Below, piece by piece: positions 44,190 through 49,854 of a stretch of 49,854 nt of DNA (the stretch's first letter is position 1; each line of letters begins with the position of its first letter). Made by a program: the position numbers and the translations under genes. Origin of the DNA: a virus. Taxonomy: Duplodnaviria > Heunggongvirae > Uroviricota > Caudoviricetes. Where the stretch lies: IMG/VR virus record IMGVR_UViG_2529293239_000010. One strand, written 5' to 3'. The notes beneath the pieces were generated by a model. The model saw nothing but the letters and a program-made list of their open reading frames with translations. It was not told the origin of the DNA and did no database searches.

Positions 44190-44216
44190 AGCCCGCCGGT
44201 TCAGGCGGGCTTTTTT
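44190..44216 (+). terminator. Hairpin terminator after lom
   Basis: AGCCCGCC-GGTTCA-GGCGGGCT stem-loop followed by TTTTTT. Confidence 0.55.
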
Positions 44217-44227
44217 GTGGGGTGAAT

Positions 44228-47200
44228 ATGGCAGTAAAAATTTCAGGTGTACTGAAAGACGGCACAGGAAAACCGGTACAGAACTGCACAATCCAGCTGA
44301 AAGCAAAACGTAACAGTACCACGGTGGTGGTGAACACGCTGGCATCTGAAAATCCGGATGAAGCCGGGCGTTACAGCATGGACGTTGAGTACGGTCAGTA
44401 CAGCGTTATTCTGTTGGTGGAAGGATTCCCGCCGTCACATGCCGGGACCATCACCGTGTATGAAGATTCCCGACCCGGTACGCTGAATGATTTTCTCGGT
44501 GCCATGACGGAGGATGATGCCCGTCCGGAGGCACTGCGCCGTTTTGAGCTGATGGTGGAAGAGGTGGCGCGTAACGCGTCCGTGGTGGCACAGAACACGG
44601 CAGCCGCGAAGAAGTCAGCCAGTGATGCCAGCACATCAGCCCGTGAGGCGGCAACCCATGCGACTGATGCTGCAGGCTCAGCACGCGCAGCCAGCACGTC
44701 AGCCGGACAGGCCGCGTCGTCGGCTCAGTCAGCGACTTCCAGCGCAGGAACGGCATCAACAAAGGCCACTGAAGCATCAAAAAGTGCTGCCGCTGCAGAG
44801 TCCTCAAAAAGCGCGGCAGCTACCAGTGCCAGTGCCGCGAAAACGTCAGAAACGAATGCTGCAGCGTCACAACAATCAGCAGCCACTTCTGCATCCACCG
44901 CGACTACGAAAGCGTCAGAAGCTGCCACCTCAGCCCGGGATGCGGCGGCTTCAAAAGAGGCGGCAAAATCATCAGAAACGAACGCATCCTCGAGCGCCAG
45001 TAGCGCAGCTTCCTCGGCAACAGCGGCAGGAAATTCCGCGAAGGCGGCAAAAACGTCAGAGACGAACGCCAGGTCTTCTGAAACGGCAGCGGGACAGAGC
45101 GCCTCGGCTGCGGCAGGCTCAAAAACAGCGGCTGCGTCGTCTGCCAGTGCAGCGTCAACAAGTGCCGGGCAGGCCTCAGCCAGTGCCACCGCCGCCGGAA
45201 AATCGGCAGAAAGCGCCGCATCGTCTGCTTCAACAGCCACAACGAAGGCTGGCGAAGCCACTGAACAGGCCAGCGCAGCAGCGAGGTCTGCTTCCGCAGC
45301 GAAGACATCCGAAACGAACGCGAAAGCGTCGGAAACCAGCGCAGAATCCTCAAAAACGGCTGCCGCATCGTCAGCCAGTTCGGCGTCGTCATCGGCCTCA
45401 TCGGCGTCTGCTTCAAAAGATGAGGCGACCAGACAGGCGTCAGCAGCGAAGGGTAGCGCCACGACGGCATCCACGAAGGCGACAGAGGCAGCTGGCAGTG
45501 CGACGGCGGCAGCTCAGAGCAAAAGTACGGCGGAATCTGCAGCAACGCGCGCCGAGACAGCGGCAAAACGGGCAGAGGATATTGCATCCGCCGTGGCGCT
45601 TGAGGATGCGAGCACGACGAAAAAGGGGATAGTACAGCTCAGCAGTGCGACCAACAGCACTTCCGAGTCACTGGCGGCAACGCCAAAAGCCGTTAAGGCC
45701 GCGTATGACCTGGCTAACGGGAAATACACCGCACAGGATGCAACGACAGCACAGAAAGGGATAATCCAGCTAAGCAGCGCGACCAACAGCACGTCTGAAA
45801 CGCTGGCGGCAACGCCAAAGGCAGTAAAAGCAGCCAATGACAATGCTGAGAAACGTCTGCAGAAAGATCAGAACGGTGCGGATATCCCTGGCAAAGACAC
45901 CTTTACGAAAAATATTGGTGCCTGCCGTGCCTTCGGTGGGTCAGTAAGCACAACAACAGGAAACTGGACGACTGCACAGTTTATCGAGTGGCTGGATTCT
46001 CAGGGAGCATTTAACCATCCATACTGGATGTGCAAGGGTTCCTGGTCTTATGGCAATAATAAAATCATTACTGATACTGGCTGCGGTAATATTCATCTCG
46101 CCGGAGCTGTCATTGAAGTAATGGGGATAAAGTCAGCGATGACGATCCGCATTACCACACCGACCACCTCCACTGGTGGTGGAACAACTAACGCCCAGTT
46201 TACCTATATTAATCACGGAACAGATTATTCACCTGGCTGGCGAAGGGACTATAACTCCAGAAATAAGCCAACGGCATCAGAGATCGGGGCGTTACCGTCA
46301 GGTGGAACAGCAGTATCATCAGTTAATCTGTCTTCAAAAGGTCGGGTAACCGCGCTGACAGACAATACGCAGGGGGCAACAGGTCTTGAGTTATACGAGG
46401 TGTATAACAACGGATATCCAACAGCGTATGGAAATATCATTCACCTGAAAGGGATGACAGCCGTTGGCGAAGGTGAGTTACTCATCGGCTGGAGTGGTAC
46501 AAGCGGTGCTCATGCTCCGGCATTTATTCGTTCACGACGGGATACGACCGACGCAAACTGGTCGCCGTGGGCGCAGCTTTACACCTCGGCTCATCCTCCT
46601 GCAGAGTTTTATCCAGTCGGTGCACCAATCCCGTGGCCATCAGATACCGTTCCGTCTGGTTATGCCCTGATGCAGGGGCAGACTTTTGACAAATCTGCTT
46701 ACCCGAAACTTGCAGCCGCTTATCCGTCAGGCGTGATCCCTGATATGCGTGGCTGGACGATTAAGGGCAAGCCCGCCAGTGATCGAGCCGTATTGTCTCA
46801 GGAACAGGACGGCATTAAATCACACACCCACAGCGCCAGCGTATCCAGTACGGATTTGGGGACGAAAACCACATCGTCGTTTGATTACGGCACTAAATCC
46901 ACGAATAACACTGGTGCGCATACCCATAGTGTTAGCGGTACGGCTGCTTCAGCCGGTGCACATACCCATTCGATGACATTTGTTTCAGGTGGTTCCAGTG
47001 GTGCTCCGGGAAGTGGATCACCTGATTATTCTAAATACAGTGTTAACACTTCTTCTGCAGGCGCTCATACGCACTCTGTATCGGGTACTGCTGCAAGCGC
47101 AGGTGCACACGCACATACTGTCGGTATTGGTGCTCATACGCACTCCGTTGCGATTGGTTCACATGGACATACCATCACCGTTAACGCTGCTGGTAACGCG

Positions 47201-47251
47201 GAAAACACCGTCAAAAACATCGCATTTAACTATATTGTGAGGCTTGCATAA
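44228..47251 (+). CDS. stf: Side tail fibre protein Stf with expanded Ala/Ser-rich repeat region and His-rich C-terminal repeats
   Basis: N-terminus [30 protein letters not shown] as lambda Stf; central low-complexity repeats around KTSETNA; C-terminal GAHTHS repeats; stop overlaps the tfa start. Confidence 0.85.
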
Positions 47252-47835
47252 TGGCATTCAGAATGAGTGAACAACCACGGACCATAAAAATTTATAATCT
47301 GCTGGCCGGAACTAATGAATTTATTGGTGAAGGTGATGCATATATTCCGCCTCATACAGGTCTGCCAGCAAACAGTACCGATATTGCACCGCCAGATATT
47401 CCGGCAGGCTTCGTGGCTGTTTTCAACAGTGATGAGGCATCGTGGCATCTCGTTGAAGACCATCGGGGTAAAACGGTTTATGACGTAGCGTCAGGGGACG
47501 CGTTATTTATTTCTGAACTCGGTCCGTTACCGGAAAATGTTACCTGGTTATCGCCGGAAGGGGAGTTTCAGAAGTGGAACGGCACAGCCTGGGTGAAAGA
47601 TGCAGAAGCAGAAAAACTGTTCCGGATCCGGGAGGCGGAAGAAACAAAAAACAGCCTGATGCAGGTAGCCAGTGAGCATATTGCGCCACTTCAGGATGCT
47701 GTAGATCTGGAAATCGCAACGGAGGAAGAAACCTCATTGCTGGAAGCCTGGAAAAAATATCGGGTGTTGCTGAACCGTGTTGATACATCAACTGCACCTG
47801 ATATTGAGTGGCCTACGAACCCTGTCAGGGAGTAA
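47251..47835 (+). CDS. tfa: Tail fibre assembly protein Tfa
   Basis: 194 aa starting [54 protein letters not shown], lambda Tfa. Confidence 0.9.
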
Positions 47836-47847
47836 TCATTGGGATTA

Positions 47848-47884
47848 TGCCGCAGCACGTCTTAAGCAAGAACGTGCTGCGGTT
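47848..47884. terminator. Bidirectional hairpin terminator between tfa and the convergent methyltransferase gene
   Basis: CCGCAGCACG...CGTGCTGCGG inverted repeat followed by a T-rich tract on the plus strand. Confidence 0.5.
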
Positions 47885-47889
47885 GGATG

Positions 47890-48555
47890 CTATTTTTTCC
47901 CTGAAGCGGAAAACATTACTACAGTACCTTGAACCTTGGTTTTAACATTCTCGAAATGCTCTGAGAGTATATGTGTTAAGCCTTCTTCGGAATCTTTTGT
48001 GTTTGAAAAGATGCCTTTCTGATTGTAAATGCGCATCAGTTTTTGACCGAAGCTATTGTGCACAACTCCATCGCCAAGAATTGTGGCTCCGTATAGAGTT
48101 CCATCGTCAGTTAAGGCCTGCGCCGCATTGCGTATTACACAGCTTTTTGTAGATATATTTCCAGGCAGGCAGTGAAGAAGGTAAAACATGGAAATGGAAT
48201 CAAATTGACCATGTAACGCCGCGGGATAAGGTTCAAAAACATCATGGCTAATTTTATGTTTAATTTTTGATTCCCCAGCCCTTGTAGATGCCGCGTTCAG
48301 GCTAGCTTCGTTCAAATCCATTAAAGATATCAGACTACTCTCAGGTACGTGAGTAAGGTAAAACCCAGTTCCAACACCAATATCCAGATGGTTGTTACCT
48401 ACATGTTCCAGAAAGTGTGGAAGAAGGTGTTCCTTTGTAGGACATCCCCATGCAAGCCGATTTGATACTCCCAAAACCCACCAGTCATAAAGCTTTAGGG
48501 TAAGTGGTGTGTAAATTTTAGCCCCATCATCTGTGTTTTTTTTCATTGATTTCAC
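47890..48555 (-). CDS. Class I SAM-dependent methyltransferase (moron)
   Basis: 221-aa ORF with motif I LDIGVGTGFY and downstream acidic/hydrophobic motifs (LMDLNEASL, FDSISMFYLLHCLP); AT-rich; opposite orientation to the tail genes. Confidence 0.65.
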   Translation of the reverse strand: MKSMKKNTDDGAKIYTPLTLKLYDWWVLGVSNRLAWGCPTKEHLLPHFLEHVGNNHLDIGVGTGFYLTHVPESSLISLMDLNEASLNAASTRAGESKIKHKISHDVFEPYPAALHGQFDSISMFYLLHCLPGNISTKSCVIRNAAQALTDDGTLYGATILGDGVVHNSFGQKLMRIYNQKGIFSNTKDSEEGLTHILSEHFENVKTKVQGTVVMFSASGKK

Positions 48556-48614
48556 CGTGTTATAGTTTTATTTGTGAATTAAATCAATTATGGCGATGAA
48601 TTACAAGGGGTTAA

Positions 48615-48884
48615 ATGCTGCCGCAGCATAGCGATATTGAAATAGCCTGGTATGCTTCGATACAGCAGGAGCCGAATGGCTGGAAGACCGTCACCACACA
48701 GTTCTACATCCAGGAATTCAGTGAGTATATTGCGCCACTGCAGGATGCTGTAGATCTGGAAATCGCAACGGAGGAAGAAAGATCGTTGCTGGAGGCATGG
48801 AATAAATATCGGGTATTGTTGAATCGTGTTGATACATCAACTGCACCTGATATTGAGTGGCCTGCAAATCCTGTCAGGGAGTAA
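48615..48884 (+). CDS. Tfa C-terminal-domain paralog or fragment (89 aa)
   Basis: C-terminal 53 aa nearly identical to the Tfa C-terminus; novel 36-aa N-terminus; AAGGGG Shine-Dalgarno before ATG 48615; lies within a direct repeat of the tfa 3' region. Confidence 0.4.
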
Positions 48885-49262
48885 TCATTGGGATTATGCC
48901 GCAGACACGTCGTATGCAGGAACGTGCTGCGGTTAGTTTGTGAGCTTTCGATAGTGGTTGTTATTTTTGCCCTTATTTGTTCCGGAGGCCATGGTTCAAT
49001 GGTCCGTCTGCCACCCTGTGGTGATGTCAGCAAAATCAGCCACTGCGCGAACCACAATAGCCCGGGAAGATGCTGAAGATCACCAGGTAAAGCTGTCAGC
49101 GCAGAAACTGGAAGAACTGCTCGCATCAATGGTTAAGGATGAGGTTGATCGCAATGATGGGATTTATTGACGTCAGCGAGAGCAGAAGGAAGAACTGAAT
49201 AACCTGAATGATTTACGCTCAATCAGAGCGATGGCGATTAGCGGCAATCACGCTCGATAAAA

Positions 49263-49292
49263 TTAACCCCGGTGATCATCCGGGGTTTTGCA
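49263..49292. terminator. Bidirectional hairpin terminator downstream of the Rha-like gene
   Basis: AACCCCGG-TGATCAT-CCGGGGTT stem-loop flanked by T-runs on both strands. Confidence 0.5.
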
Positions 49293-49296
49293 TTCA

Positions 49297-49854
49297 TTAA
49301 AACCGCATCAACCTTTCCACCAATTGTTCTTTACGGGCAACGATCCACCCATGTTGCTCCAGATAAAATTTAAACCGTTCCAGCGTGCATACCATCGCAT
49401 CGGCGGGGACTTTTTCTGTGAACTCGACCTGACCGTGTTTATCGAAGTGGATCAGTAATGCGCATCCATTATTTGGGGCGGGGGAGTTTTGTGCTGCAGG
49501 AGGACGTTTGTGGAGTTCTTCTTCCATTGCGTTAAATTTTTCAATGTAAGCTTCTTTTAGTCTGGCTGCTTTTTTGCCAGTAAATCCCATTACGAGGAAC
49601 ATGAAGCCGTCTTTTGTGATCAGGTAGCATCGTGATTCACGTTCTGCGCCGTTGCCAATTTCGACAGTCTGAACATCGGCCGAAAAGTTGGCTGATGTAA
49701 ATTCGGGAGAGCAGTCGAGTGTGTCAATCTTAGCTAAAACGTGTTTATGTTGTTTATCGAAGTAGTCGGCAACAGCTTGAGAGGTGGTAACCAGGCGACC
49801 ATCTTTGAAAAAGACTTTTGGTGACTCGTTAGAAAAAGTTATAGCTGTATTCAT
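49297..49854 (-). CDS. Rha family phage regulatory protein
   Basis: 185-aa ORF starting MNTAITFSNESPKVFFKDGRLVTTSQAVADYFDKQHKHVLAKI, Rha-like N-terminal domain; start codon sits at the window edge, so the true start could lie beyond it. Confidence 0.65.
   Translation of the reverse strand: MNTAITFSNESPKVFFKDGRLVTTSQAVADYFDKQHKHVLAKIDTLDCSPEFTSANFSADVQTVEIGNGAERESRCYLITKDGFMFLVMGFTGKKAARLKEAYIEKFNAMEEELHKRPPAAQNSPAPNNGCALLIHFDKHGQVEFTEKVPADAMVCTLERFKFYLEQHGWIVARKEQLVERLMRF

Follow-up and report, generated by a model that had tools for sequence, protein, structure and literature searches.

We analyzed stf, the side tail fibre gene in a 49,854-nucleotide stretch of viral DNA (IMG/VR record IMGVR_UViG_2529293239_000010, Caudoviricetes; hereafter the window). 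Very probably, stf specifies the side tail fibre of a lambda-like prophage in full, as a modular trimer that evolves by exchange, by changes in repeat number, and by in-register insertions and deletions. A preliminary description, made from the window's sequence, had viewed an Ala/Ser/Thr-rich tract of the product as expanded low-complexity repeats, and both this tract and the histidine-rich repeats as hypervariable. In the alleles we compared, the variability of stf resides instead in a loop at the fibre tip, in the number (zero to four) of a 44-residue repeat, and in wholesale exchange of the distal cassette. The histidine motifs are a conserved structural scaffold that frames the specificity loop.

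Gene order and domain homology both identify the gene. Upstream of stf lie a J-like 1132-amino acid open reading frame (ORF) and an Ail/Lom gene (PF06316), and tfa follows, giving the order J - lom - stf - tfa of the lambdoid tail module. This order, together with a PF08400-type protein at the locus, indicates the side tail fibre of a lambdoid prophage, as the preliminary description had proposed. The PF08400 match covers the full length of the family (residues 1-134; expectation value (E) 1.4e-71) and runs into the start of the tract, while residues 1-94 match a lambda tail fibre protein (PDB 9e7m, E 1.3e-51). The Stf N-terminal domain has a described role in the dodecameric collar (PMC12617516). 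Of the sequence-testable traits of a lambda-type Stf, we found the PF08400 domain, the gene order, and a coiled-coil signature. Of those of a T4 gp37-type tip, we found collar and needle homology, seven His-x-His (HxH) motifs, and a downstream Tfa. The homology to gp37 is end to end, with residues 794-1007 matching residues 28-242 of the PDB 2xgf chain (gp37 812-1026) at E 4.9e-86, and a PF07484 Collar domain is present at residues 798-845 (E 6.8e-12).

The preliminary description had noted a tract rich in Ala, Ser, and Thr with recurring KTSETNA-like units, and such a tract is present. Ala (37%), Ser (24%), and Thr (12%) together account for 73% of residues 111-460, and four K[ST]SETNA units occur at residues 205, 247, 275, and 359 (lambda has three). 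The tract has a clear internal order, however. Residues 111-453 split into exactly 49 heptads with the consensus [ST]-x-A-x-[TS]-S-A, in which Ala occupies position 3 of 47 heptads and position 7 of 35, and Ser occupies position 6 of 37. Identity between residues seven apart is 0.435, compared to 0.22 +/- 0.02 in 5000 shuffles (z = 10.6). The best heptad phase is the same in all 28-residue blocks, without stutter or stammer across the 343 residues. Since positions 7 and 3 are spaced by three and four residues, they correspond to core positions a and d of a coiled coil. Column entropy, computed over the 151 alleles that remain collinear through residue 470, is 0.03-0.05 bits at positions 3, 6, and 7 and 0.18-0.29 bits at positions 1, 2, 4, and 5. 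A nearly invariant core with variable outer positions is what purifying selection on the core of a coiled coil would be expected to produce. A single-chain AlphaFold2 (AF2) model of the tract is helical at model residues 2-289 and 296-370, with a short break between them (mean predicted local distance difference test score 75).

The structural role of the tract is already known, because its counterpart in Ur-lambda, Stf residues 102-393, has been assigned by cryo-electron tomography and AlphaFold3 as the proximal coiled-coil domain of the trimeric fibre (PMC12617516). A different view of the tract is that it is an intrinsically disordered, low-complexity linker serving as a flexible tether. 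Its 73% Ala, Ser, and Thr and few hydrophobic residues would suit a linker of this kind, and the low-complexity filter of BLAST masked the tract, leaving 68% coverage even for near-identical alleles. We nonetheless consider a disordered tether highly improbable: the 7-residue register is strict over 343 residues with no phase slip, positions 3, 6, and 7 are conserved while the others vary, most insertions and deletions are in phase, and the AF2 model is helical. Cryo-electron tomography also showed that the proximal fibre domain of Ur-lambda is straight and moves as a rigid body (PMC12617516). From its sequence signature, the tract of the window allele would be the proximal coiled-coil shaft, presumably trimeric. 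Coiled coils rise by about 0.15 nm per residue. The 343-residue shaft would thus be about 51 nm long and extend about 16 nm beyond that of lambda (238 residues). In PDB sequence searches, the tract gave weak matches to a T5-like L-shaped fibre (8hqz, E 0.0095) and T7 gp17 (7BOZ; E 0.1), trimeric fibres that also have small-residue heptad shafts close to the N-terminus. Their shafts are far shorter, however, and the similarity, which is marginal and may be one of composition only, is illustrative and no proof of homology.

Tract length is largely constant among alleles. As its measure, we took the span from one conserved anchor, MVEEVxRN, to another, AEDIAxAV. Among protein clusters drawn from the best 120 of 4861 matches plus phage alleles, 110 contained both anchors, and 76 of these have the 340-residue span of the window. 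The tract is 112 residues shorter in 28 clusters (one of these on 84 contigs) and 105 residues shorter in one, that of lambda. Differences of -49, -28, -14, -29, and -30 residues were found in one cluster each. Many protein matches were partial, making these allele frequencies indicative only. Cluster P0082, which lacks the first anchor and lies outside the 110, has an 18-residue gap at the end of the tract. Similarly, 76 of 87 loci with both anchors that were fetched from IMG/VR and GTDB span 340 residues; nine loci with a span of 235 are lambda contamination contigs, and the remaining two differ by -3 and +4 residues. The scan of GTDB genomes added few independent alleles, as many matches were lambda PaPa contamination contigs or tiny fragments. 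At the nucleotide level, the tract region (1321 nucleotides) is at least 80% matched in 3563 of the 5426 complete E. coli genomes. In an evenly spaced sample of genomes, all 41 rows with at least 98% coverage show no change in tract length of more than one nucleotide. The sample includes stfR of K-12 strains, which matches with 95.9% identity over 1310 nucleotides in a single ungapped piece; its outliers are one row with a 1-nucleotide difference and one with 132 additional nucleotides, the size of one extra fibre repeat (see below). By both allele and genome comparison, repeat number is thus largely equal among related prophages, and with core positions at 0.03-0.05 bits, the tract cannot be called hypervariable.

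The length changes that do occur mostly preserve the heptad register. Changes of -112, -105, -49, -28, and -14 residues are in phase, while the out-of-phase changes (-30, -29, -18, -3, and +4 residues) are all singletons. In the -112 alleles, the second K[ST]SETNA unit is joined to the fourth, and in the -28 allele to the third. At the DNA level, these units form repeat family D4 (copies 2 and 4, and 2 and 3, respectively), are 75-89% identical, and have spacings that include 84 and 336 nucleotides. The lambda junction lies between two SA[ST][AT]AST motifs 105 residues apart. Two of the singletons resemble micro-slippage: the -3 allele has lost SSA from an (SSA)n run, and the +4 allele has duplicated TSAS. 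Together, these data support recombination or slippage in the tract as a rare process, the main outcome of which keeps the heptad register. Heptad-quantised changes with K[ST]SETNA junctions may be unpublished, although they are an expected property of coiled-coil proteins.

One could imagine that shaft length (49 heptads in this allele and in the majority of E. coli prophages, 34 in lambda, 33 in the widespread -112 allele) is an adaptive, quantised trait that matches the reach of the tip to the thickness of O-antigen or capsule. Gain or loss of whole heptads, through unequal recombination between K[ST]SETNA units, would then tune how far the receptor-binding tip extends beyond the central fibre. 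We regard this as rather unlikely; what was observed is quantisation and junctions, which have no bearing on the type of host surface.

The window allele is longer than that of lambda, as had been stated (1007 versus 774 amino acids, the latter being the correct length for Ur-lambda). In a global alignment with Ur-lambda Stf, residues 1-303 are collinear with 87% identity, a single clean 105-residue gap corresponds to residues 304-408, and residues 409-499 are again similar (80% identity). The central region is then essentially unrelated up to the collar, from which point identity is 89-93%. Of the 233 extra residues, the tract contributes +105 and, by coordinate subtraction, the central region about +160 and the tip about -32. 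The preliminary description had assigned the excess to the tract, which is correct for 105 of the 233 residues; the rest lies in the longer central module, which has a second 44-residue fibre repeat and a domain like that of Mu S'. An excess located wholly in the tract is ruled out by the alignment. The extra segment resembles upstream segments of the tract (66-69% over 35 residues, against a background of 43%), and tracts of about lambda length also occur in Salmonella Gifsy-2, Fels-1, and E. ruysiae alleles. An old duplication within the tract may thus have given rise to the long form. Judged by the alleles compared, the 49-heptad tract is the common form and lambda a short outlier, such that the tract is "expanded" only relative to lambda.

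In other respects, the two fibres are alike. Ur-lambda shares the gene order, from J through lom and stf to tfa, as well as the collar domain at the N-terminus, the K[ST]SETNA-containing heptad tract, a Phage_fiber_2 repeat, the gp37-like HxH tip, and the Tfa chaperone. The window allele differs in having 15 additional heptads, four rather than three KTSETNA units, two rather than one 44-residue repeats, a Mu S'-like central region unrelated to the hinge and distal domain of lambda, seven rather than eight HxH motifs, and a shorter and different tip loop. Known for Ur-lambda only, side fibres are homotrimers present in four copies per virion, with a primary receptor that speeds adsorption (PMC12617516). 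As the tip loop of the window allele is unlike that of lambda, binding to OmpC should not be assumed.

Repeats of the GAHTHS type had been noted near the C-terminus, and we found seven HxH motifs there, at residues 866, 898, 912, 947, 961, 970, and 979 (in order, KSHTHS, three copies of GAHTHS, GAHAHT, GAHTHS, and GSHGHT). All seven align one-to-one with the seven HxH motifs of T4 gp37 (PDB 2XGF). In gp37, HxH pairs coordinate a row of seven iron ions on the axis of the needle (PMC11705849), and the iron-binding histidines H929 and H931 are essential (PMC6957217). By analogy, the HxH motifs of the Stf tip may bind iron. The proposal that this region is hypervariable did not survive comparison of alleles. 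Among 47 distinct gp37-type C-terminal modules carried on Stf alleles, 41 have seven HxH motifs (range 5 to 7), and in the modules with seven, the first three never shift in position and the last four keep constant intervals of 14, 9, and 9. The interval between the third and fourth motifs (35 to 56 residues) is the only length-variable segment among the 47 modules. Mean column entropy is 0.07 bits in the collar, 0.35 bits in the stem containing motifs 1-3, and 0.17 bits in the stem containing motifs 4-7 and the C-terminus, compared to 2.05 bits in the loop at residues 915-946.

This loop corresponds to the tip subdomain of T4 gp37 (residues 932-959), which was mapped by mutagenesis and contains contact patches for lipopolysaccharide and OmpC (PMC6957217). 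Thus, the loop is the hypervariable, and probably the receptor-contacting, segment of Stf. The window allele and gp37 share the collar, all seven HxH motifs, and a C-terminal 11-residue stretch; in contrast, the subdomain between the third and fourth motifs is unrelated in sequence. The context also differs, in that the module resides on a siphovirus side fibre with a Tfa-type chaperone, while the T4 needle is expressed with gp38 and gp57A (PMC6957217). A role in receptor specificity, which the preliminary description gave to both regions, is therefore retained for the C-terminal part, in the form of this loop, but not for the tract, since functional chimeras exchange the distal part of the fibre.

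These results bear on whether the tract and the histidine repeats form a hypervariable, slippage-prone contingency locus that sets receptor specificity. Some observations fit: there are tract length variants with end-points at repeated units, two singletons resemble micro-slippage, and the number of HxH motifs ranges from 5 to 7 among the 47 modules and is 8 in lambda. However, slippage-type contingency loci carry high-identity, head-to-tail repeats that change frequently in copy number, and the tract shows neither. Run over stf, Tandem Repeats Finder (minimum score 30) detected no tandem repeat at all; KTSETNA units lie scattered, and the dispersed repeats of the tract overall are just 60-89% identical in DNA. 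In addition, the tract is collinear in all 41 sampled rows and at least 80% matched in 3563 of 5426 E. coli genomes, its core heptad positions are almost invariant, the seven HxH motifs have fixed spacing in 41 of 47 modules, and chimeras that retain the lambda N-terminal part change specificity through the distal part (PMC11338833). A contingency locus is therefore very unlikely. What stands of the proposed site of slippage or recombination is a rare process, represented by the -112 and -28 junctions at K[ST]SETNA units and the two micro-slippage singletons, in a tract that has no DNA tandem repeat.

Repeat number does vary in the segment that follows the tract. This segment is of the Phage_fiber_2/Mu S type, which has a repeat of about 42 residues (PF03406), and occurs here in two stretches. 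The two 44-residue copies (positions 45603-45709 and 45735-45841) have a 132-nucleotide period and are 77% identical in nucleotides and at 28 of 44 amino acids. Among 199 distinct alleles, 137 have one copy, 51 have two, four have three, one has four, and six have none, and the copies are always spaced by 44 residues. From these alleles, the Phage_fiber_2 unit, on which the preliminary description was silent, is the real copy-number-variable tandem repeat of stf. Just past the first repeat, at residues 480-489, collinearity is lost in 109 of the 199 alleles, a figure that partly reflects alleles with a single repeat. With this 5' half in common, complete gp37-type alleles are between 791 and 1176 amino acids long, and 14 complete ORFs that carry it have quite different C-termini. 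StfR of the K-12 Rac prophage and common E. coli proteins annotated as "tail fiber N-terminal domain-containing" likewise share a collinear 5' half and the 49-heptad tract; their distal cassettes differ, most diverging just past the first fibre repeat. Exchange of this kind has experimental precedents. Lambda and Rac recombine in an 88%-identical region of stf (PMC3945230), and the N-terminal part of lambda Stf joined to distal parts of P2, K1F, K5, or KL106 yields functional particles with new specificity (PMC11338833).

Distal to the fibre repeats, the protein resembles the fibre of Mu. The constant part of Mu S (PDB 5YVQ) is matched at its end by residues 490-568, and the following domain matches Mu S' (8JU3). 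The distal receptor-binding end differs, having been replaced by the gp37-type tip. The next segment (residues 696-793) gave no match in Pfam and PDB sequence searches, but ends in a W..W..YTS motif that resembles the end of the preceding Mu S'-like domain. Our literature search on the structure of Mu S' found nothing that accounts for the function of the 8ju3-like domain. As the central region resembles Mu S/S' near the junction of constant and variable parts, and another E. coli genome has the recombinase gene pinQ after the same stf-tfa pair, we considered whether fibre specificity is switched by a site-specific invertase of the Mu G, P1 C, or e14/Pin type, with the repeats lying in an invertible cassette. 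Unlike Mu, the window has no G-segment-like inversion system: no recombinase-type ORF is apparent among the listed ORFs 3' of tfa, no inverted repeats of at least 30 nucleotides occur in positions 47200-49300, and a second tfa fragment (48615..48884) is in direct rather than inverted orientation. We give an invertible cassette almost no credence.

A model that accommodates these results is a fibre of five modules. The first, lambda-type domain would dock the fibre on the tail. The second would be a rigid shaft of 49 heptads, a three-stranded alanine zipper with Ala at both core positions and Ser flanking them. The two 44-residue repeats would form the third module, and the Mu S'-like domain and the one uncharacterised segment the fourth. 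In the fifth, the gp37-type collar and needle, each HxH motif would coordinate one iron through three chains, holding the needle together, and the 32-residue loop at the far end of the needle would contact the host receptor. Tfa would act as the folding chaperone of the fibre. In evolution, the conserved 5' half would serve as a homology arm for swapping whole distal cassettes between prophages, the 44-residue repeat changes in copy number, and unequal recombination between diverged K[ST]SETNA-type units would sometimes remove or add whole heptads, keeping the coiled coil in register.

Several points weigh against this model. The AF2 run used one chain without an alignment, gave a predicted template-modelling score of 0.28, and has its break at model residues 285-298. 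The stability of the putative trimer is assumed from work on lambda, and Ala at both core positions makes for an unusually thin coiled coil. Some variants are out of phase, making register conservation a strong tendency and not a rule. Our allele samples are biased toward close relatives of the query N-terminus, and rare tract lengths may be undercounted. Finally, the sequence of the tip loop differs from both that of T4 and that of lambda, and neither is a guide to its receptor.

The gene itself is ordinary and, by sequence identity, already known. The identical 1007-amino acid protein is encoded on a second IMG/VR locus (L067), the 3030-nucleotide gene is at least 80% matched in 638 E. coli genomes (the best copies being 99.5-99.8% identical), and Salmonella phage SPF_0923 is 95% identical over the parts matched. 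Every module except the segment at residues 696-793 has a solved or described relative. For annotation, the tract is better treated as a structured coiled-coil shaft than as "low-complexity" sequence, and ORFs in its alternative frames, including orf206b of lambda, should not be called genes. For inference of host range, the 32-residue tip loop and the distal cassette are the places to look, rather than the HxH scaffold or the tract. Length classes quantised by heptads, with their junctions, could also guide the choice of in-register fusion or truncation points in chimeric lambda fibres.

As the preliminary description had stated, the tract, through its composition, gives rise to long spurious ORFs on both strands: 44622..45632 (+, 336 amino acids), 44725..45474 (-, 249 amino acids), and 44904..45587 (-, 227 amino acids). 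None of the products matched a Pfam family. As a null model, we permuted synonymous codons within the tract, keeping protein and codon usage, and examined all five alternative frames. The +2 frame can never hold a stop codon, and the +3, -1, and -2 frames behave as the shuffles do; by coordinate arithmetic, the annotated orf206b of lambda is the -2 frame. The -3 frame, that of the 227-amino acid ORF, contains 2 stops compared to 9.4 +/- 2.5 in shuffles (P = 0.004, or about 0.02 when corrected for five frames), and its longest open run is 226 codons compared to a shuffle mean of 96. If this ORF were a real overlapping gene, the same depletion in lambda (P = 0.007) would be in keeping with it. 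However, in E. ruysiae alleles the frame is broken by 4 stops although depletion persists, the product mirrors the sense heptads, is rich in Leu, Pro, Arg, and Trp, and has no Pfam match, and the other four frames are as the shuffles predict. That the ORF is a gene is thus extremely unlikely. The J gene showed no such stop depletion. The openness of the -3 frame is probably a codon-context bias against NCT|A junctions, a minor unexplained point. Overlapping genes in alternative frames were accordingly rejected, with shuffles accounting for four of the five frames and a codon-context effect for the fifth.

The stf gene is a single plus-strand ORF that could begin at GTG 44222 or ATG 44228 and lies between lom and tfa (Table 1). 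The GTG, six bases 5' of the ATG, is within a Shine-Dalgarno-like GGGGTG, and the ATG is the start of lambda Stf; the RefSeq annotation of a 99.8% identical copy has the same ATG start and gene order. From the ATG, the product is 1007 amino acids rather than the 1008 first reported; from the GTG, it would be 1009. The downstream Tfa is predicted from its family to be the folding chaperone of the stf product. A terminator-like hairpin lies between lom and stf (GCCCGCC-GGTTCA-GGCGGGC-TTTTTT, then GGGGTGAAT-ATG), with its T6 run about 10 nucleotides 5' of the stf start codon. With this hairpin in front of the gene, expression of stf would need read-through or antitermination from the late operon.

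Table 1. Positions of stf, its modules and segments, and adjacent elements in the window
Feature	Position	Strand	Basis or remark
stf, side tail fibre gene	44228..47251	+	1007 amino acids from ATG
Tail-attachment (collar) domain and linker, residues 1-110	44228..44557	+	PF08400, PDB 9e7m
Ala/Ser/Thr tract, residues 111-453, 49 uninterrupted heptads	44558..45586	+	heptad analysis
Span of four dispersed K[ST]SETNA units	44840..45323	+	spacings 42, 28, 84 residues, all multiples of 7
105 residues lacking in Ur-lambda (304-408, 15 heptads), including the fourth KTSETNA unit	45137..45451	+	global alignment, gap check
Two tandem 44-residue Phage_fiber_2 repeats, residues 462-546	45603..45841	+	PF03406, 2 stretches, E 5.8e-37
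Mu S'-like central domain, residues 539-695	45842..46312	+	PDB 8ju3 residues 178-334, 237 bits
Second central segment, residues 696-793, uncharacterised	46313..46606	+	position only
T4 gp37-type receptor-binding tip (collar, then seven-HxH needle), residues 794-1007	46607..47248	+	PDB 2xgf, PF07484
32-residue tip loop between HxH 3 and 4, residues 915-946	46970..47065	+	column entropy, length variation
tfa, tail fibre assembly chaperone	47251..47835	+	PF02413, E 3.2e-45; shares one base with stf stop codon
GC-rich hairpin and T run (terminator-like), 3' of lom, directly 5' of stf ribosome-binding site	44191..44217	+	sequence read

Downstream of stf, a 197-nucleotide direct repeat (positions 47659-47855 and 48708-48904, 91% identical) duplicates the 3' end of tfa, with the second copy being an 89-amino acid fragment ORF (48615..48884). 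The repeat brackets an S-adenosylmethionine-dependent methyltransferase ORF (47890..48555, minus strand; PF08242/PF13489), which resembles a cargo gene acquired through recombination at the end of tfa. Where this ORF stands, another E. coli genome has pinQ after the same stf-tfa pair.

We also noted lambda-type stf N-termini on low-coverage GTDB contigs (loci L012-L020, with fragments L021-L029, L033, L036, L038, L042, L043, and L045). The assemblies are labelled Pseudomonas, Shewanella, Leeuwenhoekiella, Oceanobacillus, Desulfosporosinus, Kitasatospora, Bradyrhizobium, and others, and several of the contigs are about 48.5 kb long. On the nine longest, the stf ORF ends at 401 amino acids, like orf-401 of lambda PaPa. 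Such contigs are almost certainly contamination of the assemblies with lambda DNA. In phage mEp332 (PV340541, locus L006, 301-3701), stf is split by a frameshift within the Ala/Ser/Thr tract and annotated as two hypothetical proteins. This frameshift, which recalls the laboratory frameshift of lambda PaPa, could be a laboratory adaptation or a sequencing error. Lastly, just past the tail fibre region at the edge of the window is a minus-strand ORF (49297..49854) that begins MNTAITFSNESPKVFFKDGRLVTTSQAVADYF and encodes what we take to be a phage regulatory or antirepressor protein of the Rha family.

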